Below, piece after piece: positions 3,999 through 52,070 of a stretch of DNA of 64,000 bases. The DNA lies in contig JBMOEX010000001.1 of the NCBI GenBank assembly GCA_049314535.1, forward strand, positions 404 through 64,403. Direction: 5' to 3'. The position numbers and the translations under genes were made by a program. How positions within the stretch are numbered: position 1 is the first letter of the stretch; every line of letters starts with the position of its first letter. The notes beneath the pieces are model-generated. The model was not told the origin of the DNA and searched no databases. It saw only the letters and a list, made by a program, of their open reading frames with translations. The stretch is from Vampirovibrionia bacterium. GTDB taxonomy: Bacteria > Cyanobacteriota > Vampirovibrionia > LMEP-6097.

Positions 3999-4045
3999 GG
4001 GCGTGCAGCCGATGAAAACGCAGAAATTGGAGTTCCGCTACGCCC
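3999..4045. repeat. palindromic repeat element copy at the convergent 3' ends of rluD and rplY
   Basis: gggcgtgcagc-cgatgaaaacgcagaaattggagttcc-gctacgccc. It matches the 121-nt composite element in the FtsX permease (39836..39956). It fills the 67-nt gap between the two stop codons. Confidence 0.6.
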
Positions 4046-20264: not shown

Positions 20265-23200
20265 GCTAATAGCCTATCTTTGTTTTTTTTTAAGTGGCTT
20301 TGCTGCACTGGTACATGAGCTTTCTTGGTCACGTATTTTAAAGCAGGTTTTTATTTCTGAATCACTAAGCACGGCTTTAGTTTTAATAATTTTTTTTGGT
20401 GGCATCGCTATAGGTTCTTATTTAGCTGCAGCTTTAAGTAAATTCTTTTATCCAGCTAAGAGTTCCTATGCCTCTTTGTTTATTTTTAGTATTTTAAATT
20501 TAGTTTTAGCTTTTTTAACTTATTTAACTGGTAATTTCTTTAATCCAGAGCATTTATTTTCTTCATTAATGTTAGCCCCTATTTCCATACTCTTGGGTAG
20601 CTTATTTCCATTATTGAGTAATTTCTATGTTGCGTATCGTGAAAATAATACTGAGAAATCTAATACAGTCTCCAAAGTATATTTTGTGAATACCTTTGCT
20701 GGATTGCTTGCTATTTTTTTTGTGATTTTCTTTGCTTTTAAACAGCTTGGTTTAAAGCTTACCCTGCATAATCTTGCGATTCTACATCTTTCTATATTTA
20801 TTCTAAGCTTTTTGCCATCTCTATTTAATATCAAGGCTGTAGTCGTTGAGATTTTTGAGTCGATTAAAATATTTACTTTAAATCTTAGTTTACATAGTCC
20901 TAAAAATCAATTATCAAAAGCTTTCGATGACGATAATGTAGAAGATGAAACTCTTTTGAATATTGAGACTCAAGGATCTAAGGTATTGCTGTGGCTTAGC
21001 TTTGCCTTTGGTTTTATTTTATTGGGGCTTGAGCTTGTCTGGATGAGAGCTTTTAGTCTTATTCTAGCTAGTTCAGTTTACTCTTTTGCTATGGTTCTTG
21101 CGGCAGTTATATTTGGTCTTGCTTTAGGAACTTTTATATTCTACTTAGTAGCTAAACCTCTTAAACTCAGTCAGGGAAATAGTTTTGAAGATGATATTGA
21201 GCATATTAATTGGCTTGTGTTGCTTTTGGCAGCCTTAATTTTCATCAGTTCATTTAGCTTTAAATCCCTTACAGGTACTTATTTATATTTAATAGATTCG
21301 GTGGGATTTTTATTGAATGATTTTCATCGAGAGGATTTATATAAAACTGCTTTGAGTTTTATGAAATTTATACTAGCTGGTATAGTTGTGGTGCCAGTTT
21401 CTGCGACTATAGCTTTTGCTAGTACCTATTTATTACAGATATTTACCTACAGTGATTATCTGAACGATAGATATAGAGTGCTTAATGCAGGTGCTAATAT
21501 CGGTAAAGTTTTTTCTATTAATACTCTTGGTGGTATTCTTGGTTCTTTTGTTACAGTTTTCTTTTTTATTCCTTCGCTAGATGGTGGTCTTAATCAGTGT
21601 TTCCTGATATTTAATTTAATAGCTTTACTTACTTTAGCGATTACTCTTAGTTTTTCTAAAGAGAAACAGTATTTTTTATTTTTTATTGCAGCTTTGTGTT
21701 TCATAGCTTTGATTCTTTTAAAGCCGAATTTTATTACAGCTAGAACAGCTAGTGGAGCAGAGCTCTATTATGCATTAAAGTACAGAGGTGAGCAAGGATA
21801 TTATGTAGATGACACTCAGGAAGAGGTTTTGTTTCATCAAGATGGGCTCTATTCTACAGTAACCGTTATTAAAGATAGTTTCGCTAATACTATTTATTTG
21901 AAAAATAATGCAAAAGTTGAAGCTGGTATCCCAATTGAGGATGAGATATTCTCAGCAGCTGATATGCAAACGCAAGTTTTACTAGGTGTCGCTCCTAAGT
22001 ATTTTAAAGATGAGTTTAATAATATTTTACTTATTGGAATGGGCTCTGGGATTACTTTAGACTCACTTGCGATGATTAGTGGTGATGCTAAACTATGCGT
22101 GGCGGAGATAGAGGATCTAGTCTTTAAGGCGGCTGATAAATTCTTTTCTCAGGCTTGGCAAGCTATTCCAGATAAGAAAATTACTAGATATAGGGGTAAT
22201 GCTCGCTCGCTGATTAAATCATCTAAAGAAAAATATGATTTAATCGTTTCACAGCCTTCTGATCCTTGGCTATCAGCAGATATGTTTACTGATGAATTCT
22301 GGAAATTAGCTCATAGTAAGCTTTCTAAAGATGGAATTTTTGTCCAGTGGTTGCAGCTTTATTCTTTAGAGCCTAAGTATCTTTTACTGACTTTAAATAC
22401 CCTGAAGCATAATTTTAAACATTTACTAGTAATTCATCCGCCACGTACTGCTGAAATTATAATACTTGCTAGTGATAAGGATTTTCGCTTTAGAGATTTT
22501 AATGTAGATAAATATCCTTATTTGAAAACCAGTCTGAATCGAGTTTCTATACATAATTCAGCAGACTTTATGGCAAATATTATGCTTGCACCGAAAGATG
22601 TGAAAAATTTATTAGTAGTTGAAGTTCCTCGCCTGGATTTGCCTGCACCGATGTTGAATAATTCTAATAATTCTTTACTTGAGTTTCATACAGCTGAAAA
22701 TTTTTATAAGTTTTCAGAAACTATTAATCAAAATTTACAGGCATTAACATCTTATGTATCTTTCGAACATATTTTATCTTTAGCTAAATATAATTCTGAG
22801 TCTGAGAAAATAGCTTTAGTTCAGGCTTTAAGAGCTAATTACCAAAAGAGTTTATCAGGCCAGTCTTTAAAAACACGGGCTTCTTTTTATAAGAATAAGC
22901 TTTATACACAGTCTTTAAGTTCTGGGACTATTCCCTTGCTAAGTGAGGAGGATGAACTGGAAGATACTTTGGTTTTAAAAACTGCTTCAGAGGCTGATGC
23001 TGAGTATAAATTAAAAGAGGATCAGTTAATAAAAGAAAAATTATTAAAGGAAGAGGCTTTGAAAAAGCAGTTGGAGATTGATTCTAATTTATCGGAAGAA
23101 GAGAAGAAAAAAAGAAAAGAGCTTGAGGCAGAGGAAGATATAGAAGTTCAAGATATTGAAATAGTGCATAAACCACTAAATATTTCATCTGCTGATGAAA

Positions 23201-23595
23201 AGAACTATAAGAGTCTTTTAGGGATTGGGGTTAAGAATTTCGAGCAGGGTTTTTATGACGATGCTGAAAAGAATTTTAGAACCGCATTGAAAATAGATCC
23301 TAATTTGGATCAAGCTTATTTATATTTAGCTCAGATAAAGCTTTTAATGAAGGATGATAACAAGTTTCTGGAATATATAAATTATTGCCTCAGAATAAAT
23401 CCTTTTAACGTAAAAGCTCTGTATCTAGCTGCTGATTATAATTACAGCTTTGCATCATTAGCTAAGGCGACTTTTTATGTAGATAGATTATTCATGGATA
23501 CTGACTATAAAACTAAACTAACGGCTGATGAGATAAATAAACTCATGAAGATTAGGAAGAAGCTAGCAGAGATTTTAGAGAAAAATCACCCTTAG
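20254..23595 (+). CDS. large polytopic membrane protein with spermidine-synthase-like domain and C-terminal TPR repeats
   Basis: 1113 aa, with at least 12 hydrophobic segments. A SpeE-like motif (..DLIVSQPSDPW..) sits mid-protein. A Lys/Glu-rich coiled region and TPR-like repeats lie at the C-terminus. 11-nt overlap with mutL. Confidence 0.65.
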   Translation: MIIKLIAYLCFFLSGFAALVHELSWSRILKQVFISESLSTALVLIIFFGGIAIGSYLAAALSKFFYPAKSSYASLFIFSILNLVLAFLTYLTGNFFNPEHLFSSLMLAPISILLGSLFPLLSNFYVAYRENNTEKSNTVSKVYFVNTFAGLLAIFFVIFFAFKQLGLKLTLHNLAILHLSIFILSFLPSLFNIKAVVVEIFESIKIFTLNLSLHSPKNQLSKAFDDDNVEDETLLNIETQGSKVLLWLSFAFGFILLGLELVWMRAFSLILASSVYSFAMVLAAVIFGLALGTFIFYLVAKPLKLSQGNSFEDDIEHINWLVLLLAALIFISSFSFKSLTGTYLYLIDSVGFLLNDFHREDLYKTALSFMKFILAGIVVVPVSATIAFASTYLLQIFTYSDYLNDRYRVLNAGANIGKVFSINTLGGILGSFVTVFFFIPSLDGGLNQCFLIFNLIALLTLAITLSFSKEKQYFLFFIAALCFIALILLKPNFITARTASGAELYYALKYRGEQGYYVDDTQEEVLFHQDGLYSTVTVIKDSFANTIYLKNNAKVEAGIPIEDEIFSAADMQTQVLLGVAPKYFKDEFNNILLIGMGSGITLDSLAMISGDAKLCVAEIEDLVFKAADKFFSQAWQAIPDKKITRYRGNARSLIKSSKEKYDLIVSQPSDPWLSADMFTDEFWKLAHSKLSKDGIFVQWLQLYSLEPKYLLLTLNTLKHNFKHLLVIHPPRTAEIIILASDKDFRFRDFNVDKYPYLKTSLNRVSIHNSADFMANIMLAPKDVKNLLVVEVPRLDLPAPMLNNSNNSLLEFHTAENFYKFSETINQNLQALTSYVSFEHILSLAKYNSESEKIALVQALRANYQKSLSGQSLKTRASFYKNKLYTQSLSSGTIPLLSEEDELEDTLVLKTASEADAEYKLKEDQLIKEKLLKEEALKKQLEIDSNLSEEEKKKRKELEAEEDIEVQDIEIVHKPLNISSADEKNYKSLLGIGVKNFEQGFYDDAEKNFRTALKIDPNLDQAYLYLAQIKLLMKDDNKFLEYINYCLRINPFNVKALYLAADYNYSFASLAKATFYVDRLFMDTDYKTKLTADEINKLMKIRKKLAEILEKNHP

Positions 23596-23690
23596 AGACC
23601 ACTGCACAACTCCATTTTCTGCGTTTTCGTTGTGCAGCGGTCTCTCATGCACAACGTGCAGTTTCTGCGTTTTCGTTTTCTGCGTTTTGA
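23595..23690. repeat. palindromic element plus degenerate tandem sub-repeats between the convergent speE-like and clpC 3' ends
   Basis: gagaccactgcacaac-tccattttctgcgttttc-gttgtgcagcggtctc at 23595..23644, overlapping the TAG stop. Then come further copies of the ttctgcgttttcg unit (..gtttctgcgttttcgttttctgcgttttg..). Confidence 0.7.
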
Positions 23691-23699
23691 TCGGAGCTT

Positions 23700-26429
23700 T
23701 TACCCAGCTCTATTACCAACAGGCTCACCGCCACCAGTCTCAGAACCTACTCCACCACCTGTTCCGTTAAGACCAAGAGCTTTCTTTTTCTTTTTAATAG
23801 TAGATCTTTTTAGTTCTTCCTGTTTTTCTGGAGGTAGTTTACCTGTAACTCTAAATTTAATTTGAGCTTTAACTAAAGCTTGTCTCTTATCAGCATCTTT
23901 AGTCTCTTCAGTTACATCCTCTGGTTTTTCATAAATTTTATCTTTAGGAAACTCTGCTTCGAAAATTACATAGGCTTCGATCTCGTCTCCATCAGTATGT
24001 TCGCCATTGATGAGAGAATCTGAAATCGGATCTTCAAGAAGCTTCTGTATAGTTCTCTTCATCGGTCTTGCACCATAAGTTCTGTTATAACCTTCAGTCG
24101 AGACTTTATCTTTAACTTCATCTGTAAGAGTAATAGTCATACCTTTCTCTTTCAGTCTGCTTTCTAGATCTTTTTTCATGATATCGACTATCTTACGCAT
24201 ATCAGTACGAGTTAAGTGTTTAAATATAACGATATCATCAAGCCTGTTCAAGAACTCCGGTCTAAATGCACGTTTCATTTCTTCCATTACGGCATCTTTC
24301 ATGCGTTTATATTTTTCATCTTCAGCTTGCTCTTCAGTATTAGAAGCGAAGAAACCTACACCAAAATCACTGTTCATGCGCTGAGCACCTACGTTAGAGG
24401 TCATGATAATAATAGTATTTTTAAAGCTAACTTTACGTCCTTTACTATCAGTTAAATGACCGTCATCTAACATCTGTAACATAACGTTAAATACGTCAGG
24501 GTGAGCCTTCTCTATTTCATCGAAAAGTACTACGCTGTAAGGCTTTCTACGAACGGCTTCAGTTAATTGACCGCCATCGCCGTAACCAACATATCCAGGA
24601 GGTGAACCTATAAGCTTACTTACAGTGTGCTTTTCCATGTACTCAGACATGTCCACTCTGATTAAATTATCAGCACTGCCGAAATAATAATCAGCAAGAA
24701 CTTTAGCTAGCTCAGTCTTACCTACACCAGTAGGACCGCAGAACACAAAAGAACCTATCGGTCTTTCTGGATTTTTCAATCCCGCTCTAGCTCTTCTAAT
24801 AGCTTTAGAAACAGCTGTAACAGCTGAGTCTTGACCTATAATTTTGCCATGAAGAGTATCTTCCATCTGTCTTAGCTTGTCATTCTCTCCAGCTTTTAAA
24901 TCACCAACAGGAATCCCAGTCCAGCTAGCCACTATTTCAGCTATTTCTTCCTCGCCGACAGTAGGTTTATTTTTTTCTTGCTCTCTTCTCCACTCTTCTT
25001 GGAGACTACGAATTTTTTCTCTAATATTATTTTCTTGATCTCTGAGCTGTGAAGCTTTTTCAAATTCTTGCTGACGAATAGCTTCTTCTTTTTGTCTTGA
25101 AATAGTAACTAATTCATCTTCGTATTTTTTAGCTTCTGGTGGTAAACCACTAGCCTTAAGTCTTACTCGAGAACTAGCTTCATCTATAAGATCTATAGCT
25201 TTATCTGGTAAATGTCTATCGAAAATATATCTATCAGATAATCTAGCAGCAGCTTCTACAGCAGCATCAGTGATAATTAGGCGATGATGCTCTTCATATT
25301 TCTGTCTTAGACCAATAATGATCTGAATAGTCTCTTCTACAGAAGGAGAGTCTATAATTACAGGCTGAAAGCGTCTCTCTAGAGCAGCATCTCTTTCTAT
25401 ATGCTTACGATATTCTTCTAAAGTAGTAGTACCGATACATTGAAGCTCTCCACGAGCGAGTGCTGGTTTTAAAATATTTGCTGCATCTATAGCACCTTCA
25501 GCTGCTCCAGCTCCTATTAAAGTATGTAGCTCATCTATGACTAACATCATATTTCCAGCAGTACGGATTTCATCCATTATTTTTTTAAGTCTTTCTTCAA
25601 ATTCGCCTCTATATTTAGTTCCAGCGACTAAAAGACCTAAATCTAAAACGATTAATTTTTTACCAACTAAAATATCTGGTACATCATTCGCTACTATTTT
25701 TTGAGCTAAGCCCTCAGCTACAGCAGTTTTACCTACACCAGGTTCACCGATTAATACAGGATTATTCTTGGTTCTTCTACCTAATATTTGAATTACTCTT
25801 TCTATTTCCTCAGCACGCCCAATAACAGGATCTAATCTACCTTCGGCAGCAGCTAAAGTGAGATCTGTACCAAATTCATCTAAAGTAGGTGTTCTAGTTC
25901 TAGTATTTTGGTTAGCGTTTTTATTAGAACCCACTCCGAGTAAAGAATTATTAGTACTACTACCAGAACCACCAGTAGCAGTAGAGTTAGAACCTGATTC
26001 ACCAAGTAATCTAATAATATGCTGTCTAACTTTAGCTAAATCTACACCTAAATTATCTAAAACTCTCGCAGCGACTCCTTCACCTTCTCTGATTAAGCCT
26101 AGTAAAAGGTGCTCCGTACCTATATAGTTATGTCCGAACTGCCTAGCTTCATCCCAGCTTAATTCTAAAACCCATTTAGCTCTAGGTGTAAATGGAATTT
26201 CAACTGCTACGAAACCTGAGCCTCTACCTATAATTTTTTCCACTTCGATGCGGGCGTCTTTTAAGTTCACTCCCATGGATTTTAGGGTTTTAGCTGCTAC
26301 ACCAGTTCCTTCTCCGATAAGTCCGAGCAATATCTGCTCGGTACCAACGAAATTATGACCAAGTCTTCTAGCTTCTTCTTGAGCTAGCATTATGACTTTT
26401 ATCGCCTTCTCTGTAAATCTTTCAAACAT
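23700..26429 (-). CDS. clpC: ATP-dependent Clp protease ATP-binding subunit ClpC, with low-complexity linker insertion and extended C-terminal tail
   Basis: 909 aa, with two N-terminal Clp_N repeats. Both AAA+ modules carry Walker A/B motifs ([16 protein letters not shown]). A UVR-like middle domain is present. The C-terminal extension of about 75 aa is Lys-rich then Gly-rich. Confidence 0.9.
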
Positions 26430-27581: not shown

Positions 27582-29582
27582 ATGAAGAAAGTCCCCTCTA
27601 CTTTACCTCTAGTTGTTTTAGTGCTGTTCCTATCTCTCTTTGTCATGAGTTTGATGGGACAGGATAATAAAAGAAGAATCCTGAGCTACAGCGATTTTAT
27701 TAAGCGAGTTTTACCTAACGATGGTTCGTCTAGTCCTATATATAGAGTCATTTTGACTAATGGCGATGATATAGCTAAGATCGAGGATAAAAATGGTGAG
27801 ATCTACTACGCTCGTATTCCAGCAAGTTTACTAGGTGCTAATCAAGATTTAGCTGATAGGCTCGTTAATCATGACATCGAGGTAGATGTTAAAGCCCAGT
27901 CTAACGAAGGTTTCTGGATAAATATTATTTCTAATTTTATTATTCCAGTAGGTTTATTTGCATTCTTTATATTTATGCTCAGAAACGCTGGTGGCGGCGG
28001 TCCTATGTCTTTCGGAAAGAGCAGGGCGAAGATGATGACTAAAGACATTAATGTCAGCTTTGATGATGTCGCTGGTATTAGTGAAAGTAAAAGAGAATTA
28101 GAAGAGATAGTAGATTTTCTGAAAAGTACAGATAAATACAAGGCTCTGGGGGCTAAGGTGCCGAAGGGGGTTTTGCTGGTAGGTCCACCTGGTTGTGGTA
28201 AAACTTTACTTGCAAAAGCGGTAGCTGGTGAGGCTGGAGTGCCTTTCTTTAGTATCAGTGGCTCTGATTTCGTCGAGATGTTCGTCGGGGTAGGAGCTAG
28301 TAGAGTTAGAGATCTTTTCGAGCAGGCTAAGAAAAATGCACCATGTATCATTTTTATAGATGAGATAGATGCAGTCGGTAGGCAGCGTAGCGGTATGTCT
28401 GGTGGCGGAAATGATGAGCGTGAGCAGACTTTAAACCAGTTATTAGTAGAGATGGATGGCTTTCAACCTAACTCTGGAATTATTGTTTTAGCTGCGACGA
28501 ATAGACCAGATGTCTTGGATAAGGCATTATTAAGACCAGGTAGATTTGATAGGAAAGTAGTTATAGATACTCCAGATTTAGCTGGCAGAAAGCAGATCTT
28601 AGATGTTCACGCCAGAGGCAAGCCTATGGCAGCTGACATAGATCTAAAAGTTATAGCGAAAAGAACACCAGGTTTCAGTGGTGCAGATTTAATGAATTTG
28701 GTAAATGAATCAGCGATACTGGCTGCAAGGGATACTGCTAAAGAGATTCAGGTTAAACACATAGAAGAAGCTATAGATAAGGTTGCTATTGGTCCAGAGA
28801 AACGCAGTAAAATCATTAAGCCTAAAGATCAGTTAAATACTGCGATTCATGAAATAGGTCATACGATAATTAGTATTTTTAAAGAATCTAATAATGAATT
28901 TCATAAAGTAACTATTATCCCAAGAGGTATGGCATTAGGTTTGACTTGGTCTACTGAAGAGGAATATAAAGTATCGGCTTCTGAAAAGCATTTAAAGACA
29001 GAGATGATGGTGCTTTTAGGTGGCAGAGTGGCAGAGGAGATAACTTTCGGTAAGGAAAATATTACTACTGGCGCGTCTAATGATATGGAAAGATGCACTG
29101 CTATTGCAAGAGCGATGATCACTCGTTATGGAATGAATAGTAATTTAGGCATAGTCACTTATGGTGATAATGAATCTAATCCTTATCTGTCTCAGAGCTC
29201 TTATATGCAGAACTATAGTGATGAGTTTGCTAAAAAAATCGATGAGGAAGTTAAGGATTTAATACAGACTATGTACACGGAGGTAAAGACTCTCTTAAAT
29301 GAAAAGAAAACTCTTTTACTAGGCTTATCTCAGGAGCTTTTAAGAAGAGAGACTTTAGATAAAGAACAAGTTTTCTTAACTATAGAGCAGATACAGAAAG
29401 GCGAATATGAAATCTTAAGTTTAGAGGAGATGGAAAAAATCGCTACTTCTAGAATGCCAGAGCGTGTTGAAACTATGATACGTGAAGAAGAAGCTCAGAG
29501 ACGTGATGAGCGTGAGAGATTAAGAAAAGAAGAGAACGAGGAAAAGCGTGAAGACACTAGAGATAAAGATGAAGAAGCTTAG
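27582..29582 (+). CDS. ftsH: ATP-dependent zinc metalloprotease FtsH
   Basis: 666 aa, N-terminal TM segments, AAA Walker A GPPGCGKT, zinc site HEIGHTI, charged C-terminal tail. Confidence 0.9.
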
Positions 29583-32500
29583 TACTAATGAGATTCGCAG
29601 AGCTTGGATAAATTTTTTTGAAAAAGACTGTGGTCTAGAGCATAAGTTTTACAAAAGTGCTTCTTTAGTACCTGATAATCCTACTCTGCTTTTAAACTCT
29701 GCTGGTATGGTACCTTTCATCCCATACTTTATAGGAGCGACTAAAAGACCAGAGCCACCGAGGGCTGTAAGTATACAGAAGTGTGCTCGTGTCGGTGGTA
29801 AAGACAGCGATTTAAGTAATATCGGTTATACGCAGAGGCATCATAGTTTTTTTGAGATGTTGGGGAATTTTTCTTTTGGTAATTACTTTAAACAAGAAGT
29901 TATTCCTATGGCTTGGAAATTCGTTACTGAAGTTTTAGGACTTCCATCTGAAAAGCTTTATGTATCAGTTTTTGAAGGTGATGATACTAGACCTTTTGAT
30001 GAAGAATCTTATAATCTTTGGGCTGATATTTTTAAAAATGTCTATCCTGAAAAAGAAATCGCTGAGCATATTTGGAAGTTAACAGCGAAGGATAATTTTT
30101 GGGGACCGCCAGGTCCTACTGGTCCATGCGGTCCTTGTAGTGAAATTTATTATGATCTTGGGGAGCATATTCTAGATAAGGATGATAGATATATAGAGAT
30201 CTGGAATCTAGTGTTTATGCAGTTTGAAAAGCTAGATGACGGCAGCTTAAAGCCTCTGGAGCATAAGAATATAGATACTGGTGCTGGTTTAGAGCGTATA
30301 GCGATGGTTTTGCAGGGTGTTAATAATACTTTTGAAATAGATGAGCTTGCGGAGCTGGTTTCTGCGACGAAGGCTGAGGTTTTTAAAGGTGCGGTTGGGG
30401 CTGTTGTTGGTGAGGCTGTTAATCAAAATGCAGAAATAGCAGTTCAGCAGCAGTCTCATGAGGCATATTTTAAAATTATCGTAGATCACTTACGCTGTGC
30501 ATGCTTTTTAATAGCTGATGGTGTTAGACCTAGTAATGTGAGTAGAGGTTATGTGCTTAGAATGTTGATTAGAAGAGCGGCACGCTTTTTGCATAAACTA
30601 GGTTGTAATTCTGAACCGCTTTTATATAAGTTATCAGAGAAGGCTGTAGATATTTATGGAGCTTTTTATGATGAGCTGGTTTCGAGTAAAGAGCTTATAG
30701 CAAGCGTGCTTAGAAAAGAGGAAGAGCTTTTTGCTAAGACGGTTGAGAATGGGTTAGAAAAAATAGATTTGCTCATTATTCGGACTATTGATCAGAAAAT
30801 TACAAATATTTCTGTAGGTAAGAAAGTCGTTGAAGGTGAGATAGTTGATCCTTCACCTCGGCAAAACAGGATGGCTTTGCAGTATGAGACGTTCCTTGAA
30901 GAAAGAGAGATTGTTTGTAAGCTTTCAGGTGATCTTTTGTTTAATATATATTCAACTTATGGCTTACCGATTGAAATAATAGAGGACCAAGTAGATTCTT
31001 GGAATAAATGTTTAAATTATGAAGGTGAACTTGACGACGCTCCAGAATTTAAAGATATTTCAGAGTTTGTGCACGAAGCTATAAGGGGTGATCGCGGAGC
31101 GCTAAAAAGCTTTGGCTCTAAAAAATTTACACTCAAAATCGATTATGAAGGCTACGAAAAAGCTCGTGAAGAGCATTCTAAAGCTTCTTCTACTTCTGCC
31201 TTTAACGTCTCCGTAACTTCAGAAAAATCACTATCACAGCTTTTACAGGCTTATCCTAAGACAGAGTTTTTAGGTTACGCTCAGGAAGAGACTGAAGCTG
31301 AGATTTTAATGATTTTAGATAAGGATAAAAATCCTATTTCTGAAATTAATTTCTCGGATATTTTAGCTCAGGGAAATTCTAATTCAAGTTCAGAAAAACT
31401 TGTTTCTGTTGAAACTAAATTAGAGACCGCAAGTGGACTTGTGCAGCGGTCTCCTGAAGATTATTACGAATTTTTTCTTTTACTGAATAAGACTACTTTT
31501 TATGCTGAGTCTGGTGGTCAAGTATCTGATTCAGGATATATTATTAAAGACCTTGCAGCGAATACTTTACTTGGGCAGAGTGGTTTAAAGACGGAGACCG
31601 AAAATGAAGCGATGCAACAGTCTCAGATCCAGTTTCCAGATGATAATCTGAAAATTAATATCTCACATAATTTACTTTTTAGTGTGAAAGATGTAAAAGC
31701 CATAGATGGTCGTATCTTACATAAACTAGTCATAGAGCTGCCTTGTGATTCTATTTCTAAAGACACGCAGGCAGTTTTAAAAACTGGTGATTTGATTAAA
31801 GCGCAGGTAAATTCTAAACAGCGCCTGCTTACTAAGTTTCATCATAGCTCTTGTCATTTACTGCAAGCTGCTTTAAGGAAGGTGTTAGGAAATACAGTTA
31901 CTCAAGCGGGTTCTCTAGTCTCTGCGGAATATACACGTTTTGATTTCAACTATGAATCAGCTCTTAGTAAAGAGCAGTTAAATGTTGTGGAAAAACAGAT
32001 GAATGATTGGGTGAAGGCTGCTTTGCCTGTAACTACTATAGAGACTAGCTTTGATGAGGCTGTTAAATTAGGAGCTTTAGCATTTTTTGAAGATAAGTAT
32101 GAAGATAATGTCAGAGTCTTGAAAATAGCGAATGAATCGGAAGTGGCTTCAGTAGAACTCTGTGGCGGAACGCATGTGTCAAATACAGCCGAAATAGCTC
32201 AAGTGAAAATAGCTAGTGAGTCTTCAGTTGCTAGTGGAGTTAGACGTATAAAACTCTTTGTAAATGAGTGTGCTGAAAGATTTATTAAGGAAGAGCAGTT
32301 AAAGCAGTCTGATATAGAAGAACTAGAGAAGCGTAAAGAGCTTGAAAAGCAGTTAGAGAATGAGAAAAAAGCAGAAAAGTTACGCCTGCTAAATGCTAAA
32401 ACAGATGAGTTTTTAAAACTGGCGTTTGAAAAAGACGGGAGAACCTTTATTATTGCTGATCTTAATCAAATTGTTGATTTTACACTAGAAGCTGATGTCT

Positions 32501-32793
32501 TGAAAGACTTTGCTACTAATCTGAAGGAAAGTTTAGAAGCGAAAGGCCTTTTAATATGGCTTTTCTTTATTGGGGCTTTTGATGAAAAGGTAACGATTCT
32601 AGGGGCTTGTTCTAAATCTCTTGCTGAGATTGATAAATTTAAAGTTAACAATCTAATTAAATCTGCGGCTAATATTTGTGGCGGTGGCGGTGGTGGTCGC
32701 CCTGATTTCGCTCAGGCGGGTGCTAAAAATATAGCTAAAATTCCAGAAGCTCTAGCCATGATTAAAGACACAGTGCTAGAAGGTGTTCGATAA
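29569..32793 (+). CDS. alaS: alanine--tRNA ligase (expanded, about 1070 aa)
   Basis: Start placed at [19 protein letters not shown], which aligns with the canonical AlaS N-terminus. Editing-domain zinc motifs (..HSSCHLL.., ..CGGTHV..) and a C-terminal DHHA1-like GGGGGRPDFAQAGA are present. A large lineage-specific insertion holds two repeat copies. Confidence 0.9.
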   Translation: MKKLSTNEIRRAWINFFEKDCGLEHKFYKSASLVPDNPTLLLNSAGMVPFIPYFIGATKRPEPPRAVSIQKCARVGGKDSDLSNIGYTQRHHSFFEMLGNFSFGNYFKQEVIPMAWKFVTEVLGLPSEKLYVSVFEGDDTRPFDEESYNLWADIFKNVYPEKEIAEHIWKLTAKDNFWGPPGPTGPCGPCSEIYYDLGEHILDKDDRYIEIWNLVFMQFEKLDDGSLKPLEHKNIDTGAGLERIAMVLQGVNNTFEIDELAELVSATKAEVFKGAVGAVVGEAVNQNAEIAVQQQSHEAYFKIIVDHLRCACFLIADGVRPSNVSRGYVLRMLIRRAARFLHKLGCNSEPLLYKLSEKAVDIYGAFYDELVSSKELIASVLRKEEELFAKTVENGLEKIDLLIIRTIDQKITNISVGKKVVEGEIVDPSPRQNRMALQYETFLEEREIVCKLSGDLLFNIYSTYGLPIEIIEDQVDSWNKCLNYEGELDDAPEFKDISEFVHEAIRGDRGALKSFGSKKFTLKIDYEGYEKAREEHSKASSTSAFNVSVTSEKSLSQLLQAYPKTEFLGYAQEETEAEILMILDKDKNPISEINFSDILAQGNSNSSSEKLVSVETKLETASGLVQRSPEDYYEFFLLLNKTTFYAESGGQVSDSGYIIKDLAANTLLGQSGLKTETENEAMQQSQIQFPDDNLKINISHNLLFSVKDVKAIDGRILHKLVIELPCDSISKDTQAVLKTGDLIKAQVNSKQRLLTKFHHSSCHLLQAALRKVLGNTVTQAGSLVSAEYTRFDFNYESALSKEQLNVVEKQMNDWVKAALPVTTIETSFDEAVKLGALAFFEDKYEDNVRVLKIANESEVASVELCGGTHVSNTAEIAQVKIASESSVASGVRRIKLFVNECAERFIKEEQLKQSDIEELEKRKELEKQLENEKKAEKLRLLNAKTDEFLKLAFEKDGRTFIIADLNQIVDFTLEADVLKDFATNLKESLEAKGLLIWLFFIGAFDEKVTILGACSKSLAEIDKFKVNNLIKSAANICGGGGGGRPDFAQAGAKNIAKIPEALAMIKDTVLEGVR
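31423..31453. repeat. 31-nt palindromic element copy inside alaS (in-frame)
   Basis: gagaccgc-aagtggacttgtgca-gcggtctc. Its right arm is identical to the right arm of the 23595 copy. Confidence 0.6.
31594..31624. repeat. 31-nt palindromic element copy inside alaS (in-frame)
   Basis: gagaccg-aaaatgaagcgatgcaa-cagtctc. Confidence 0.5.
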
Positions 32794-38876: not shown

Positions 38877-41657
38877 CTAAAATGCTTCATCCTTTTCTAA
38901 TTCCCTTGGTGAGACTTTGGATTGAGTCTGGCTTGGGAAGATCGCTGCGATTAAGGCTGCTGTTACTGATATTAGAGTTGCAAGCAGTATACTCTTAAAA
39001 TCGAGTGAGAAATTAATATCCCAACCGAAGGAGCGATGATTTATAACAAAAATCATTACCCAAGCGGAAGCAATGCCAAGTGGTATCGCAAAGATACTGG
39101 ATAGTAATCCCATTGTAAAGGCTTGTAAGGAAATTGATCTTTGAATGTCTTGCTTAGACATTCCTAAAGCTTTTAAAAGAGCGAATTCTTTTTCTCTTTC
39201 AATAATCAAGGATAGCAAAGCACTGAATATGCCAAAAGCGGCTACTATCACTGCGATGATCTTTAATGCTGATGTTACTCTAAATGTTCTATCGAAAATC
39301 TCTAAAGATTCTTTGAGAAGTTCTTTGTTTGAGCGTATATCAAAGAAAGTCGGAGAAAGGCTTTCTTCAGCAGCTTTGATTTTATAAGCTTCGATATAAG
39401 TTTTTATTTTATCTAGTTTTGGATTATTTTTTTTATTCGTAAGTAGGGACCACTGCACAACTCCATTTTCTGCGTTTTCGTTGTCATTTGTTTTTTTTAC
39501 TTCTGTGGATTCTTTTAGGAAAATACCAAGCGAGCTTAAATTAGGATCTTCCCACAGTGAGCGATATAGGTCTTGATGCATCATTAAAAGACCTTGATCA
39601 GAGCTGTAATCATTAAATATTCCCAAGATGGTAAATGTCTGTAATCCTTTGTCTGTTTGAAGTTTCACTCGATCATTGCATCTAACTTTATGCTTGTAGG
39701 CATAGGGAGCAGAAGCAATAAGACCTTGGCCTTTATCAAATTTATTCCAAATATCTTTAGTAGATTCTTTGAAAGTAAAAGAATTTTTTACGATAGGTAG
39801 GGAATTTATGCTCGCCACTCTAGTTGAGCCATATTGGGCGTGTAGCGGAACTCCAATTTCTGCGTTTTCGTCGTCCTCATGATCCTCATGTACTCCCAGT
39901 ACATTCCGGTCATTCGTCCTCCTCAGCCTTGAACTTGTTCGTTCGGCTACACGCCCATATTCACCAATTACATCTCGCAAGTGATATTCACTAATACCTA
40001 TTATGTCTTCAGTCTGAAAGGTTTTGGTGAATTCTATTACTTTATTATTCAATGTTATATGGTTACGATGTGACACTTGTTTGGGAGTGGATATGTAAAT
40101 GTCTGCAAATAAAGAAGCTGAAAGCCAGTCTTCTACAGTATTTCGGAAACTATTGATTGCGATATCGAGTGAAAGGTAGAGAGAGATAGCTACTGTCAGT
40201 GCTGCAATCGCTATAGCGTTACGGCTAAGATTCTTTTTAAGACTTCTTAGTGATATTAAAGAAGCTAATCCAAAAGTGTTTCTATAAAGCGGCTCTAAAA
40301 TGTAATCGCTATGATAGGTGAGAAATGGTATGAAGCAGCTAAATCCAATAACCATTATAAATAAGCCAAAAAAGCAAGCTGAGATATTTTTTTCAAAAAT
40401 CAGAAACAGTAATAGTGATAAAGAAATTAAAACTAAGCCTGCAATATTTAATTTTGGAAGATATTTTTTGACTGTCTCTTCAATGTCTATATTCTTTATA
40501 ACTTTAGTCACCGGACTGTTACTAGCTTCGTAAGCAGGTACTAGCGCTGATAACAATGCCGCAAATACACCTATTAATCCAGCTTTGAGAAATGTGATAT
40601 TACTGATATGTATCTGGCTTACTTGTAAAACAAAATAAAGATCATTAATAGTTCTTACGATAAAGCTTAAAAGAACGTTAGCGAGTAGGTAGCCTAATCC
40701 GATGCCTATCAGTGAACCGATTATTGCAAATAGCAGTGATTCAAATATTATTAAAGAAAAAATTTCTTTTTGACTGACGCCGATTGTTCTGAGAAAGCCA
40801 AATATTTTGCGACGCTGAAGAACCGCAAATGTCATAGTGTTATAAATTAAAAAGATGCCAACCAGCATAGCTAAAAGACTTAGAGCACTAAGATTAGCAT
40901 TGAAGGATTTAGTCATGGATTCTTGAGCTTGATTGCGTTCTGAGGATTTAATTAAAACTAGACTAGGATCTATAGCAAAGAGTATATTTTTTAACTCATT
41001 CTCTTCTTCTGGCTTCAGAATTAAATCTATTCTGCTTATATAGTTTTGTAATTTTAATAATTCTTGAGCTGTAGATATATCCATGAACAGCAAGTTATCA
41101 AGGGACGTACTAGCTGGGGCGTTATCTGAATCAATTAGACCATAAAGTTTTAGGCGATAGGTTTCGTCATTTTGATCTATCAGTAAAGGATCTCCAGGCA
41201 GAATTCTAAATTTCTCTGCAGTATGCTTTGTGGTGAAAAAACCTTCTAGCTTATTAATAAAAGCTGATGGATTATATTGCTTTCTGGAATTGAACTCTTT
41301 AAAAATACTTCTAAAAGCTATATCACTGAAGGGATCTATACCAATAACCTTGAGCAAACGATTATTCTTAGTGACGAAACCTTCTATAAGAGGAGTTACT
41401 GTGAGTTTATATTTATTCTCTAAATTGACAACCAGCTCTTCGTCTATTTTCCCTCCATTATTAATAATATGGTGAGTAGCTTTGCCATTTATAATTTCAG
41501 TGGAAAGCTCAAACGATTTTTTAGCAGATTCTATCGCTAAGTCTGTGGCTGTGATAATTGCGACAGAAAGAACTATGCCAGTTATTAAAGAAGCGAATTG
41601 CCAGATGTTTTTAGTTAAGAATCTAATACTTGAAAGATATAGTGATTTAGTTAACAA
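38877..41657 (-). CDS. ABC transporter permease with two FtsX domains (MacB/YbbP-like), carrying two in-frame repeat insertions
   Basis: 926 aa. Two FtsX-type 4-TM modules with large extracytoplasmic domains. Inserted peptides are ..NENAENGVVQWSL.. and ..YGRVAERTSSRLRRTNDRNVLGVHEDHEDDENAEIGVPLHAQYG.. . Confidence 0.75.
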   Translation of the reverse strand: MLTKSLYLSSIRFLTKNIWQFASLITGIVLSVAIITATDLAIESAKKSFELSTEIINGKATHHIINNGGKIDEELVVNLENKYKLTVTPLIEGFVTKNNRLLKVIGIDPFSDIAFRSIFKEFNSRKQYNPSAFINKLEGFFTTKHTAEKFRILPGDPLLIDQNDETYRLKLYGLIDSDNAPASTSLDNLLFMDISTAQELLKLQNYISRIDLILKPEEENELKNILFAIDPSLVLIKSSERNQAQESMTKSFNANLSALSLLAMLVGIFLIYNTMTFAVLQRRKIFGFLRTIGVSQKEIFSLIIFESLLFAIIGSLIGIGLGYLLANVLLSFIVRTINDLYFVLQVSQIHISNITFLKAGLIGVFAALLSALVPAYEASNSPVTKVIKNIDIEETVKKYLPKLNIAGLVLISLSLLLFLIFEKNISACFFGLFIMVIGFSCFIPFLTYHSDYILEPLYRNTFGLASLISLRSLKKNLSRNAIAIAALTVAISLYLSLDIAINSFRNTVEDWLSASLFADIYISTPKQVSHRNHITLNNKVIEFTKTFQTEDIIGISEYHLRDVIGEYGRVAERTSSRLRRTNDRNVLGVHEDHEDDENAEIGVPLHAQYGSTRVASINSLPIVKNSFTFKESTKDIWNKFDKGQGLIASAPYAYKHKVRCNDRVKLQTDKGLQTFTILGIFNDYSSDQGLLMMHQDLYRSLWEDPNLSSLGIFLKESTEVKKTNDNENAENGVVQWSLLTNKKNNPKLDKIKTYIEAYKIKAAEESLSPTFFDIRSNKELLKESLEIFDRTFRVTSALKIIAVIVAAFGIFSALLSLIIEREKEFALLKALGMSKQDIQRSISLQAFTMGLLSSIFAIPLGIASAWVMIFVINHRSFGWDINFSLDFKSILLATLISVTAALIAAIFPSQTQSKVSPRELEKDEAF
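39446..39486. repeat. partial palindromic element copy (left arm plus core), in-frame in the permease CDS
   Basis: gggaccactgcacaactccattttctgcgttttcgttgtc matches the 23595 copy apart from one arm mismatch and loss of the right arm. Confidence 0.65.
39836..39956. repeat. 121-nt composite palindromic element with perfect 11-bp terminal inverted repeats, in-frame in the permease CDS
   Basis: Terminal inverted repeats gggcgtgtagc and gctacacgccc are perfect. Internal segments recur at 4010..4036 (core), 19320..19346 (MutL) and 575..603 (amidase). Confidence 0.7.
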
Positions 41658-42365: not shown

Positions 42366-42424
42366 TTTCTCACATATTCTTAGGAATTGAAAACTTTATG
42401 GTTATTTTGGGCATGATATTTATT

Positions 42425-43960
42425 ATGTCAGACTGGACTGCTGGATATATTGCTGATATTGGTTATACATTTGGATATTATCCAGAACTCAATCCCTTAG
42501 CGGTAAAATTGGCTTTTTTGTTTTCTGGCTTAAGCTATCCTAAATTTTCTTCAGCTTGTGAGCTTGGTTTTGGACAAGGCTTATCTGTGAATATTCATGC
42601 AGCTGGCTCTAGTATTCAATGGTATGGTACGGACTTTAATCCATCTCAGGCAGCGTTCGCTCAAGATTTAGCTTCGATTTCTGGAGCTGAAACTAAGCTT
42701 TATGACGATTCTTTTGATGTTTTCTGTTCTAGAGATGATTTGCCAAATTTTGACTTTATTGGTTTGCATGGTATCTGGAGCTGGGTTTCTGAAGAAAATC
42801 AAGCGACTATCGTGGATTTTCTTCGCAGGAAGCTAAATGTGGGTGGAGTTCTGTATATTAGTTACAATACTCAACCAGGTTGGTCAGCAATGGCACCAAT
42901 TCGTCATCTCCTTTCTGAACACGCTGAAGTTATGGCTGCACCAGGGCGCGGCATATTGTCACGAGTTGATGCTGCATTTGATTTTGTCAGTTCATTCTTG
43001 AATGTGAATCCTGGTTTCTTGAGAGCGAATCCATCAATTGTAGATAAATTAAAGAGAGTAAAGGGGCAAAATCAGCGTTACCTTGCACATGAGTATTTTA
43101 ATCGCGATTGGCGACCGACTTATTTTGCTGAAATGGTTAAATTACTTGAGCCTGCTAAATTAAGTTTTGCTTGTTCTGCTTCTTATTCTGATCATATTAG
43201 CGCTTTGCATTTAACTCAAGAACAGCAGAATTTCCTGAAAGACATTCCTGATGATGATTTCAGGGAATCGGTGCGTGATTTTATTGTAAATAGGCAGTTT
43301 AGGCGTGATTACTGGGTTAAGGGTGCTAGAAAGCTTTCTGCACAGGAGCAGTTAAAGAAATTAAGGAAAATTCGTATTTTACTGGTAGTAAATAAAGATG
43401 ATGTGGATTCTAAGATCAAGAGTAGTATTGTTGGAGCCAATATTCAAGAAGCAGTTTTTACTCCTTTAATGGCAGCCTTAGCTAAACATCAGCTCTTCTC
43501 TTTATCAGAATTAGAGATTTTACTTCAGGAAGACAAAGTCAGTATGAAGAGTTTAGTACAGGCTGTGATGATTTTAATTTCAGGGGGGTATGTCGTTATT
43601 GCTCAGGATGAAGAATTGGTGAATAATTGTAAGGAAAGAGCTGTTAAGTTTAATCAACATATTTTAGACGAAACTGAAGGTAACGATGATATTAACTTTA
43701 TAGTGAGTCCAGTTACAGGTAGCGGCATTCACGTTAATCGTTTTGAGAGGTTGTTTATAAAATATATTAAGCTAGGTATTATTGATCCAAGTGAATGGTC
43801 TCAAAAAGTGTGGGCATTACTATCTTCTCATAACCAAAAATTACTAAAGGATGGTAAGACTTTAGAGTCTAATGAAGAGAATCTTGCTGAGATATTTAGG
43901 CAGGCAAATGAATTCTTGTCTAAGCGTGTGCCGATAATGGAGGCTTTGCAGATAATTTAA
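42425..43960 (+). CDS. class I SAM-dependent methyltransferase with a C-terminal regulatory-like domain
   Basis: Start placed at MSDWTAGY.. . Motif I is ..ELGFGQGLSVNIHAA.. . ..GGVLYISYN.. is present. The extension of about 300 aa is all-helical. Confidence 0.5.
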   Translation: MSDWTAGYIADIGYTFGYYPELNPLAVKLAFLFSGLSYPKFSSACELGFGQGLSVNIHAAGSSIQWYGTDFNPSQAAFAQDLASISGAETKLYDDSFDVFCSRDDLPNFDFIGLHGIWSWVSEENQATIVDFLRRKLNVGGVLYISYNTQPGWSAMAPIRHLLSEHAEVMAAPGRGILSRVDAAFDFVSSFLNVNPGFLRANPSIVDKLKRVKGQNQRYLAHEYFNRDWRPTYFAEMVKLLEPAKLSFACSASYSDHISALHLTQEQQNFLKDIPDDDFRESVRDFIVNRQFRRDYWVKGARKLSAQEQLKKLRKIRILLVVNKDDVDSKIKSSIVGANIQEAVFTPLMAALAKHQLFSLSELEILLQEDKVSMKSLVQAVMILISGGYVVIAQDEELVNNCKERAVKFNQHILDETEGNDDINFIVSPVTGSGIHVNRFERLFIKYIKLGIIDPSEWSQKVWALLSSHNQKLLKDGKTLESNEENLAEIFRQANEFLSKRVPIMEALQII

Positions 43961-44042
43961 ATATTTAACTCAACCTAGTCACCTAAGATAATAATCCCTT
44001 TAACGCTTTATTAAAGATATTTTGCTTTAATAAATTCGGAGT

Positions 44043-44642
44043 GTGTTAAGTGTGGATATAAATATTGGGGGCATCGGTCTTAACGATGCTCTGTATCTGA
44101 ATAATCATGTATTAGAGGAGTTTGAAAATTCTCTGTATGATACTGCTCTGTCTGTTATTTCGGGGAATGCTTTGGAACCTTTAGTAGAGCTCAATCTTAA
44201 TGTAAATGAATCTGTTGTGGAATTGGTTGCAGGCGCTACTGCCTTCGAGTCTTTTCCTGAATTGGTTGATGATCCATTCCTTAATCATGTATCTATGCTT
44301 CAGTCTCTGATTGATTCTAAGCTTGAGTTGAACGATTCTGAATCTAAATCTTCAGCTCAGAAAATTTCTAAGCACGGTAAGTTTTTAGGAGTTAATGTTG
44401 AGGCTTATCAATCCAGATTGGATTCTTGTAAAGTACTCATAATGGATGAATTATCTAAAGGTGATAAATTGGATTTGAAAAAACTTCAACTCTTAGAAGC
44501 AAAGAGAACTAATCTAGAAAATTCTATTCAAGCAATTGAGAATGGTCGAAACTCTATTATTGGTTCTACTCAGAGAGATCCTTATCTTCAGCGTCACATT
44601 GATGAAATTCTTGCTACTGTGGCTCCCTTAAATGTATCTTAA
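44043..44642 (+). CDS. hypothetical protein
   Basis: 199 aa, acidic, no motif. Confidence 0.35.
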   Translation: MLSVDINIGGIGLNDALYLNNHVLEEFENSLYDTALSVISGNALEPLVELNLNVNESVVELVAGATAFESFPELVDDPFLNHVSMLQSLIDSKLELNDSESKSSAQKISKHGKFLGVNVEAYQSRLDSCKVLIMDELSKGDKLDLKKLQLLEAKRTNLENSIQAIENGRNSIIGSTQRDPYLQRHIDEILATVAPLNVS

Positions 44643-51257: not shown

Positions 51258-52070
51258 ATGGTTAGATCTTACAGATTCGCGATAAATAAAGAAGATGATC
51301 TTATTGATTTACCTAATAAGATTATAACCACCAAAAAACAAAATTTAATTCATCAACTCATTAAAGTTTTAAGATACCCTGAGGATGAAGCTCATAATGA
51401 TATTGAATTGATAGATGGTTTTTCTCGTAATATTTATCAAGTAAGGTTACTCACTGAAATTGGTAGCAAAATATTAAAAAAGTTAGATTTCACAATATTG
51501 AATGTGAAGCAGAGTCCTAGAGAGCTTGATACTCATGTGAACTTTTATGTGCCGATTATTAAAAATGAAAATTTTGAATTAATGTTAAGAAAACTTTGTG
51601 AGCTAGGAGTTCAGGAATTTACTCCAGTTTTTTTTAAATTTAGTCAGAAAAAATATTTGAGAAAATTAAAGGAACACTCTTACCAAGAAAGAATCTTGAA
51701 AATTATTGAATCAGCGACTGAACAGTGTGAGGGAGCTGTATTTGCGAAATTAAATCCAGTAATGAGCTTTGAAGATTTAATTAGATTAAATCAGAAAATT
51801 GATAAGGACACTATTAAGCTTTTCGGTTCAGAGAGGCTTTCTTTAAGTGAAATTCTTGGTGAAAATATCGAAAATGCAGGAAATGCTGTTCTACCACGGT
51901 CTCTAGGTTTAAGAAAAGCTTCTCTCCTAATTGGACCAGAAGGTGGTTTAAGTATAGAAGAAGTAGAGGCTTTAGAAAAGCTGGATTTTAAAGGTATTAG
52001 TCTTGGGAAGAGAATTCTTAGAGCGGAGACAGCTGCTGTAGTGTTGTTCACTAAGCTAGGTTTAATTTAA
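51258..52070 (+). CDS. rsmE: 16S rRNA (uracil1498-N3)-methyltransferase RsmE-like
   Basis: ..HQLIKVLRYPEDEAHNDIELIDGF.. and C-terminal ..IGPEGGLSIEEV...SLGKRILRAETAAV.. are RsmE hallmarks. Confidence 0.7.
   Translation: MVRSYRFAINKEDDLIDLPNKIITTKKQNLIHQLIKVLRYPEDEAHNDIELIDGFSRNIYQVRLLTEIGSKILKKLDFTILNVKQSPRELDTHVNFYVPIIKNENFELMLRKLCELGVQEFTPVFFKFSQKKYLRKLKEHSYQERILKIIESATEQCEGAVFAKLNPVMSFEDLIRLNQKIDKDTIKLFGSERLSLSEILGENIENAGNAVLPRSLGLRKASLLIGPEGGLSIEEVEALEKLDFKGISLGKRILRAETAAVVLFTKLGLI

Follow-up and report, generated by a model that had tools for sequence, protein, structure and literature searches.

How did a palindromic sequence of 121 nt come to lie inside the open reading frame (ORF) of an ABC permease, lengthening the protein and leaving the frame open? 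The question is posed by a 64-kb stretch of DNA from a Vampirovibrionia bacterium (64,000 nucleotides of contig JBMOEX010000001.1, hereafter the window), in which the gene of an FtsX/MacB-type permease carries such an insert. The insert is very probably a recently arrived copy of a family of small palindromic mobile elements that abounds in Caenarcaniphilales (Melainabacteria/Vampirovibrionia), relatives of cyanobacteria that do not photosynthesise, with an in-gene behaviour like that of the Rickettsia palindromic elements (RPEs). A discrete 121-bp unit inserts with a 5-bp staggered duplication of its target, and this copy landed in the second extracytoplasmic domain of the permease. [quoted passage not shown] The features of the insertion are as follows:

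38877-41657, minus strand: host gene, 926-aa FtsX/MacB-type ABC permease (Pfam FtsX, E = 1e-33)
39836-39956, minus strand: full-length 121-nt MITE copy with terminus type A, GGGCGTGTAGC (profile match, E = 1.3e-36)
39831-39835: target-site duplication, copy 1 (ATATT on the plus strand, AATAT on the coding strand)
39957-39961: target-site duplication, copy 2 (ATATT)

A recently arrived element in an ABC permease gene

The element runs from GGGCGTGTAGC to GCTACACGCCC with perfect 11-bp terminal inverted repeats, and its predicted in-frame translation within the permease is RVAERTSSRLRRTNDRNVLGVHEDHEDDENAEIGVPLHA; in length, repeats and location the sequence is as described in the original prediction from which this analysis started. 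Its GC content is 50%, compared with 35.6% for the window as a whole, and it is predicted to form a long hairpin (-52.9 kcal/mol and z = -6.05 as RNA, z = -3.9 as DNA). Allowing one mismatch at most, the 11-mer terminus occurs four times in the window, where 0.14 occurrences are expected, and none of 100 shuffled sequences reached four. A scan of the whole window at the Rfam gathering thresholds gave no family match. A flanking target-site duplication, which the prediction had proposed to look for, is present and 5 bp long. Element and duplication together amount to 126 nt, i.e., the permease gains exactly 42 codons; the addition put at about 40 amino acids is thus one of 42, and the 926-aa ORF stays open.

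Direct evidence comes from orthologous sites. In two related contigs (loci L005 and L006) the site is uninterrupted, GGTGAATATGG being followed directly by CTCAACT, whereas at this position exactly 126 more bases are present in the window and in each of three independent assemblies (L001-L003), namely the 121-nt element and a second copy of AATAT. The empty site, GGTGAATATGGCTCAACT, carries a single AATAT/ATATT copy, and projection of the flanks leaves a gap of -5. The same picture emerges at the protein level, where a search returned permease orthologues 853-884 aa long. Of 22 sequences that were aligned, one was the cluster with the insert, twenty were other clusters of the permease and one was a distant member of the family from Thiohalomonas denitrificans (37%). 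The exact 42 residues YGRVAERT...PLHAQ are missing from all 21 sequences other than the insert-bearing one; the fourteen nearest orthologues have 90-97% identity when the insert is left out, and orthologues with 96-97% identity are among those without the 42 residues. Since filled and empty orthologous sites were found, the recent mobility that had been proposed for the element is borne out: the permease copy arrived recently and is specific to one strain lineage.

The permease has ten predicted transmembrane helices and two extracytoplasmic domains, and the insert corresponds to residues 567-608. In an AlphaFold2 model with a mean predicted local distance difference test score (pLDDT) of 70, residues 568-608 have a pLDDT below 50, with means of 23-35 for 10-residue blocks, and the insert is modeled as a coil that extends the turn between the β-strands 552-567 and 608-617 of the second extracytoplasmic domain. 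From MacB/FtsX topology we infer that this domain is periplasmic. The periplasmic location claimed for the insert is therefore consistent with the model, where it appears as a predicted low-confidence loop between two β-strands.

A family of fixed length with variable ends

The family was surveyed by scanning one genome per species with the exact 21-nt core GAAAACGCAGAAAWTGGAGTT, which is common to the permease copy and to a second kind of small palindrome in the window; ascertainment by an exact core inflates the apparent conservation of columns 88-108 only. At least 104 stretches carry the core and, among the matches listed, all reside in five metagenome-assembled genomes (MAGs), labeled Ca. 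Caenarcaniphilales, Ca. Melainabacteria, Cyanobacteria bacterium REEB446, an unclassified 'bacterium' and a 'Proteobacteria bacterium'. The last of these, 'Proteobacteria bacterium WB4_1_1465' (RFQS; loci L013, L011 and others), has 93% identity with the window across 2.4 kb and the same repeat family as the Melainabacteria MAGs, and its phylum label is probably wrong.

Among the matches listed, 57 are full-length copies, and the 55 distinct ones align without a gap at 121 columns. Between copies the interior is about 95% identical. The 13 nt at the ends are of at least four types, with numerous variants, and the sequence of the 5-nt central loop is close to random; 29 distinct termini and 28 distinct loops were counted. 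The 11-bp terminus reported in the original prediction is real, but the family has at least four types of terminus that co-vary, and it is one of these:

Type A: GGGCGTGTAGC
Type B, abundant: GAGACCGCTGCAC, also written GAGACCGCTGC
Type C: GGCACTGTTGCC
Type D: GGGACTGCTCGC

The 5-bp duplication is a property of the family. The five bases flanking the 121-nt unit are identical in 16 of the 57 listed copies and agree at four of five positions in another 14, compared with a mean of 0.62 and a maximum of 5 perfect matches when flanks were permuted, and no other duplication length gave a comparable signal in these copies. Three independent pairs of filled and empty orthologous sites each display a 5-bp duplication (AATAT, CTGTT and CATGA). 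Target sites are rich in A and T, position 2 being W and position 4 mostly A. At 121 nt the unit is within the size range of MITEs (below about 400 bp), and its only open frames are 40 codons long and without similarity to transposases. Together with the terminal inverted repeats, the target duplication of fixed length and the many dispersed copies that are polymorphic for presence and absence, this identifies the family, by structure, as a MITE.

Several individual loci deserve mention. At L100:1743-2164, about 3.5 type-D elements form a tandem array with a 127-nt period, in which element and spacer are duplicated head to tail rather than inserted independently. L049:4300-4700 and L068:4420-4830 are syntenic up to an element copy (termini of type A and type B, respectively) and unrelated right after it, which suggests recombination between dispersed copies; a switch of terminus type at an orthologous site, considered for this pair, was ruled out by the break in synteny. 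The copies at L047:4867-4987 and L110:1555-1675 are orthologous and share the same AAGAT duplication, and they differ by a compensated change in the central stem and at four of five loop bases. The L110 version is a variant common elsewhere, a hint of gene conversion between copies. Viral contigs yielded one match only, an in-frame right-end remnant inside a 1086-aa ORF (L111:3620-3665, an IMG/VR 'viral' contig that may be host DNA or a phage of this lineage), and they gave no sign of a phage vector. Several tandem repeats of about 330-365 bp at L095:3390-5136, 82-90% identical to one another and probably part of a repetitive protein gene, are unrelated to the MITE.

Copies within and between genes

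The element has one stop-free frame per orientation. Of the full-length copies listed, 24 (42%) are located inside long ORFs, all of them in one orientation and one frame, encoding the peptide GRVAERTSSRLRRTNDRsVLxVHEDHEDDENAEIGV...; the open frame of the reverse orientation is used by none of the 24. The host proteins include a CysN-like GTPase, MurE, CarB, TrmD, signal peptidase I (LepB), leucyl aminopeptidase (PepA), GlpD and ArgJ, and some contain two element copies. The forward peptide is hydrophilic and acidic, with a grand average of hydropathicity of -1.19 compared with -0.19 for the reverse peptide, and the resulting segment of 40-42 residues is probably disordered. Because 121 + 5 = 126 nt equals 42 codons, the downstream frame is never shifted, and because 126 is a multiple of three, one genic insertion in six is harmless.

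Intergenic copies have no orientation bias, with 19 in sense and 17 in antisense at the 3' ends of genes; 11 are found between convergent genes and none between divergent genes, whose promoter regions are avoided. This pattern is as expected for a selfish insert filtered by selection. The simplest reading is one of unbiased insertion followed by selection, in which insertions in other phases or in the reverse orientation would have been purged.

A candidate mobiliser and the pairing of the ends

A repeat ending in GGCACTGTTGC, which is the type-C terminus, is contained in, or breaks, contigs of four of the five MAGs. It encodes a DDE transposase with the domains PF01609, PF05598 and PF13612, and its flanks differ at many ends, which identifies it as a multi-copy insertion sequence (IS). 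This IS of about 1.28 kb has ends, GG[G/C]ACTGTTGC, that match the termini of one MITE subfamily, and the termini of types C and D agree with those of this IS5/IS1182-like IS from the same MAGs. One complete copy, L112, has a length of 1275 bp, its ends being GGGACTGTTGCC and GGCACTGTTAC, and ACTAA is present on each flank. Because it has 11-12 terminal nt and a 5-bp duplication in common with the MITE and resides in the same genomes, this IS is the best candidate for the mobiliser of the MITE, a role that it likely has; an IS5/IS1182-like DDE transposase would then move the element in trans. Among more distant relatives of the IS, the ends are variable and include GGGCGTGTTGC, and terminus variation therefore exists in this clade.

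A self-BLAST search for multi-copy IS within the same MAGs yielded fragments at contig ends and tandem arrays, but nothing else apart from one unrelated fragment that is IS30-like. The latter is the N-terminus of a transposase that resembles the IS30 family as judged by eye (L063:1-390 and L098:341-708), at or near contig ends of MAG JBJTTW, and represents a second multi-copy IS, unrelated to the MITE termini.

A number of observations weigh against a mobile element moved simply by this transposase. The transposase, whose relatives are annotated as IS5 family by JGI, falls below the NCBIfam cut-offs for every named IS family, including IS5 and IS1182, and the duplication length of the IS is that of the one complete copy with both junctions (n = 1). 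Past the first 12 nt, the similarity between IS and MITE is not significant, as 115-400 of 2000 shuffles reached the observed score. The type-A termini of the window copy, GGGCGTGTAGC, match the local IS ends at 8 of 11 positions, type B (GAGACCGCTGC) is without TGT at positions 6-8, and among the loci examined no IS with type-A or type-B ends was found; the more distant IS relatives with GGGACTGTTGC ends have no clear duplication. Furthermore, 13 of the 16 terminal pairs have changed on both sides, 94% of the terminal cells are paired, and all 13 singleton terminal variants are complementary. Such covariation of the ends is not predicted by simple recognition of double-stranded DNA ends by a DDE enzyme, but is expected if source elements must fold or if the arms are homogenised.

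The pairing was examined across the 55 distinct copies. The first 11 terminal pairs are all Watson-Crick in 26 of them, and pairing in the central hairpin is complete (100%); two of its pairs co-vary, and 50 of the 55 copies have a G.T wobble there. The covariation score, a measure that relatedness between copies inflates, was 0.413, compared with 0.157 in shuffled alignments, none of 500 shuffles reaching the observed value, and at most 0.133 in slid controls. A strand-specific count outside the fixed pair gave 27 G.U and 17 A.C mismatches, which is a small excess. Since changes in the termini and in the central stem are compensated, with the interior conserved, we tentatively raise the possibility that the family is an RPE analogue whose propagation needs the folded hairpin form, in which case pairing between the two ends and the central hairpin would be required in addition to the transposase. 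If this requirement and the classical transposon hallmarks both hold, the family would represent structure-dependent, DDE-mediated (or otherwise catalysed) MITE transposition, and the first tractable system in which to study the movement of in-frame 'protein-coding palindromes' and the reason for a length (121 + 5 = 42 codons) that is tuned to do no harm in genes.

The same data bear on a different route, in which an RPE-like selfish element spreads via a folded single strand (a single-stranded DNA or RNA hairpin) by means of an enzyme other than the IS5/IS1182-like transposase, the match to the IS termini being a coincidence or the result of shared target or processing preferences. The strong co-variation of the two termini, the fully paired central hairpin and the diversity of termini and loops (29 and 28 distinct ones) compared with the 95%-identical interior are in agreement with such a route, as are the types A and B, which have fresh duplications yet are unlike the IS ends. 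There is also a precedent in bcr1 of Bacillus, which, according to the available text of PMC3184786, combines 5-bp direct repeats with compensatory changes and has no assigned transposase. However, a fixed 5-bp duplication is the signature of staggered-cut, DDE-type integration, and the same genomes contain an IS whose terminal 11-12 nt are identical and whose duplication is 5 bp. The excess of G.U over A.C is small (27 and 17), intergenic copies are without strand bias relative to transcription, and the copies are related by descent, such that part of the covariation reflects a few subfamily founders. We therefore regard this route as unlikely, and continue with a MITE that would be moved by the candidate transposase.

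Remnants of older insertions in the window

A search of the window with the family profile identified eight to eleven element-derived segments. Besides the full-length copy, these are:

574-600, minus strand: left-end 27-nt remnant, in frame (GRVAERTSS), in an amidase-like ORF running off the window
3999-4045, plus strand: internally deleted type-A copy of 47 nt with both arms and core (E = 9.6e-8)
14776-14836, plus strand: short type-B derivative of about 60 nt with 14-bp arms GAGACCACTGCACA, in frame in ORF 14644-16563
19302-19349, plus strand: decayed in-frame remnant (LRRTNDRSV) in the mutL linker (profile search, E = 1.6e-9)
23592-23693, minus strand: short type-B derivative (~23596-23654) with adjacent core debris (23659-23693)
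30423-30456, plus strand: weak right-end remnant in the 1081-aa ORF 29548-32793 (E = 0.004)
39444-39485, minus strand: older right-end remnant of a type-B element, NENAENGVVQWSL, in the same permease (E = 1.9e-7)

The original prediction of one full-length copy accompanied by decayed or partial copies is supported by each of the partial matches that it named. Recurrence of the core and both arms at 3999-4045, in the gap between rluD and rplY, is confirmed; the copy is intergenic, between convergent genes, and is common to the window and MAG RFQS (L013), so it must be old. The 29-nt match in the amidase gene is exact, but extends from 574 to 602, which places the coordinates 575-603 given for it off by one. 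The module in mutL, reported at 19320-19346, is likewise real, with a match from 19308 to 19346 that the profile search widens to 19302-19349. This remnant is closer to the family consensus GACCGCAGTGTA than to the permease copy and therefore inserted independently. L007 has a longer remnant that reads as the same peptide; the two may be the same insertion and, if L007 is the mutL orthologue, the insertion would predate the species split.

Beyond the matches named in the prediction, a second terminus type, GAGACCRCTGCAC, is present at 14776-14836 and 23592-23654. The former copy is orthologous to a copy in L019. At the latter site, the type-B element and the tandem core debris fill exactly the 104-nt gap between the convergent genes 20254-23595 and 23700-26429, and the TAG stop of the plus-strand gene overlaps the terminal base of the element at 23592-23693. 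The remnant at 30423-30456 is in the usual frame of the element, as computed from its coordinates, and the remnants within genes (amidase, mutL, permease and ORF 29548-32793) are all in the element's genic frame. Weak profile matches to the right end at 2496-2526 (E = 0.014) and 51868-51902 (E = 0.069) may be very old remnants or chance matches.

In the permease itself, the older remnant corresponds to residues 718-744, which have a pLDDT below 50 in the AlphaFold2 model. Among near-identical orthologues the stretch NENAENGVVQWSL is intact, mutated (NKNVGNAALQWSL) or swapped for a shorter, unrelated sequence, and in some it is absent. Close to this gene, the window and a related strain differ by a large strain-specific indel that adjoins the ABC transporter operon: L005:4948-9241 has a 1490-aa gene without a Pfam hit, where the window has about 2 kb (42417-44405) with a 199-aa ORF.

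Comparison of orthologous copies indicates how such remnants arise. A 39-nt loss between GACGAA repeats distinguishes L044 and L022, and truncations are seen in L011 compared with L091 and in L038 compared with L067. These internal deletions in orthologous pairs account for the stem-plus-core forms of 47-60 nt and for the isolated 'modules'. Old copies would be eroded by point mutations and by internal deletions with short direct repeats as their end points, leaving the fragments in mutL, in the amidase gene, in the rluD/rplY gap and elsewhere in the permease.

This bears directly on the suggestion that the element is composite. According to this alternative, small modules (the core, CTGAGGAGGACGAATGACCG and the arms) are each mobile in their own right, and the 121-nt unit was assembled when they inserted into a hairpin that was already there. 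Such modules do occur separately in the window, as do short stem-plus-core forms of 47-60 nt. However, the three independent empty sites lack the whole 121 nt and 5 nt, not a sub-module, the 55 distinct full-length copies align without a single gap, the short forms are explained by the internal deletions, and the isolated modules in genes keep the reading frame of the element, as decayed full copies would. A composite origin is thus very improbable, and its nested-insertion version is ruled out by the empty sites; the element is a unitary MITE of fixed length, and the modules elsewhere are remnants of separate, older insertions. A reading of the 42 residues as a functional gain of the permease that was selected for, or of the insert as a regulatory RNA structure in the permease mRNA, instead of as a tolerated parasite, is hardly credible: the ORF is intact, the same peptide is found in many proteins and the hairpin is very stable, but the insert is limited to one strain lineage among near-identical orthologues and is predicted to be disordered, the same sequence is similarly frequent in intergenic DNA in both orientations, older genic copies decay and there is no Rfam family match.

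Comparison with known systems

A recently mobile MITE that inserts in frame has practical consequences for these genomes. The 42-residue low-complexity insertions in MurE, CarB, TrmD, ArgJ and other proteins are to be annotated as repeat-derived, not as lineage-specific domains, and the element and the IS have likely given rise to breaks of contigs and to rearrangements in the assemblies. The mechanism is approachable, given the fixed length, the fixed 5-bp duplication, the insertion polymorphism at strain level and the candidate transposase. In the literature on repeats in Caenarcaniphilales and Melainabacteria we found no description of this family, and comparison is made with systems from other lineages.

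Repetitive extragenic palindromes (REP) and their hairpin-forming doublets (REPIN), which are mobilised by REP-associated tyrosine transposases (RAYT), are extragenic palindromes of 20-40 nt with GTAG/CGTC tags and without target duplication. The element described here is 121 nt long, often intragenic and flanked by a 5-bp duplication, and does not belong to this class.

IS26, with the IS6-family terminal repeat GGCACTGTTGCAAA, makes an 8-bp duplication, and Tnp26 needs TGT at positions 6-8 (PMC8477213). The type-C termini, GGCACTGTTGCC, match this repeat at 11 of 12 positions, including TGT at 6-8, but the duplication here is 5 bp and the IS with these ends encodes a PF01609/PF05598 transposase. 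An 8-bp duplication is commonly given as the rule across the IS6 family, and no IS6-type transposase was seen. An IS26/IS6 origin, suggested by the terminus match, was ruled out by the duplication of 5 rather than 8 bp and by the type of transposase.

The bcr1 element of the Bacillus cereus group is about 155 bp long, has 5-bp direct repeats and is variable between strains (Klevan 2007 and Kristoffersen 2011, via the available text of PMC3184786). Compensatory changes keep its hairpin or cruciform, and it is reported as transcribed (PMC3184786, same text). The 5-bp flanking repeats and the compensatory changes make it a precedent for the Melainabacteria element. Differences are the Firmicute host and the unrelated sequence; moreover, the available text of PMC3184786 describes neither in-frame genic insertion nor an IS partner with matching ends.

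Nezha of Anabaena and Nostoc is about 130-170 bp long and has terminal inverted repeats shared with the intact ISNpu3, flanking direct repeats and a stable hairpin; its recent mobility was demonstrated by filled and empty orthologous sites, and it is described as intergenic (PMC3184786). The present family resembles Nezha in being a MITE with a candidate IS partner and filled and empty sites in a host from the cyanobacterial phylum. It differs in that 42% of the listed full-length copies are intragenic and in frame, and in having a conserved interior combined with hypervariable but mutually complementary termini.

RPEs are palindromic, about 105-150 bp long and present in many copies per genome (Ogata et al. 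2000, via the available texts of PMC10969869 and PMC3184786). According to the same texts, about half of the copies are in frame in unrelated housekeeping genes, where they encode the same conserved peptide in a manner compatible with the fold (PMC10969869, PMC3184786). The present family shares with RPEs the size, the palindrome, the copy number and the in-frame insertion of one peptide into unrelated protein genes, but differs in its fixed 5-bp duplication, in its terminal inverted repeats of the classical kind and in the autonomous IS that is its candidate partner. To our knowledge, RPEs have been assigned no target duplication and no transposase, and we know of no sequence relationship between the two. 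All listed copies reside in Melainabacteria/Caenarcaniphilales MAGs, and by host the family falls outside RPE-1 to RPE-10, which belong to the genus Rickettsia. Being a palindrome with a single reading frame in numerous unrelated protein genes, the element behaves as an RPE does, without being a member of an RPE family. In-frame selfish palindromes in essential genes have been regarded as mainly a peculiarity of Rickettsia; Caenarcaniphilales, an unrelated, free-living or predatory lineage, provides an independent case from a different phylum.

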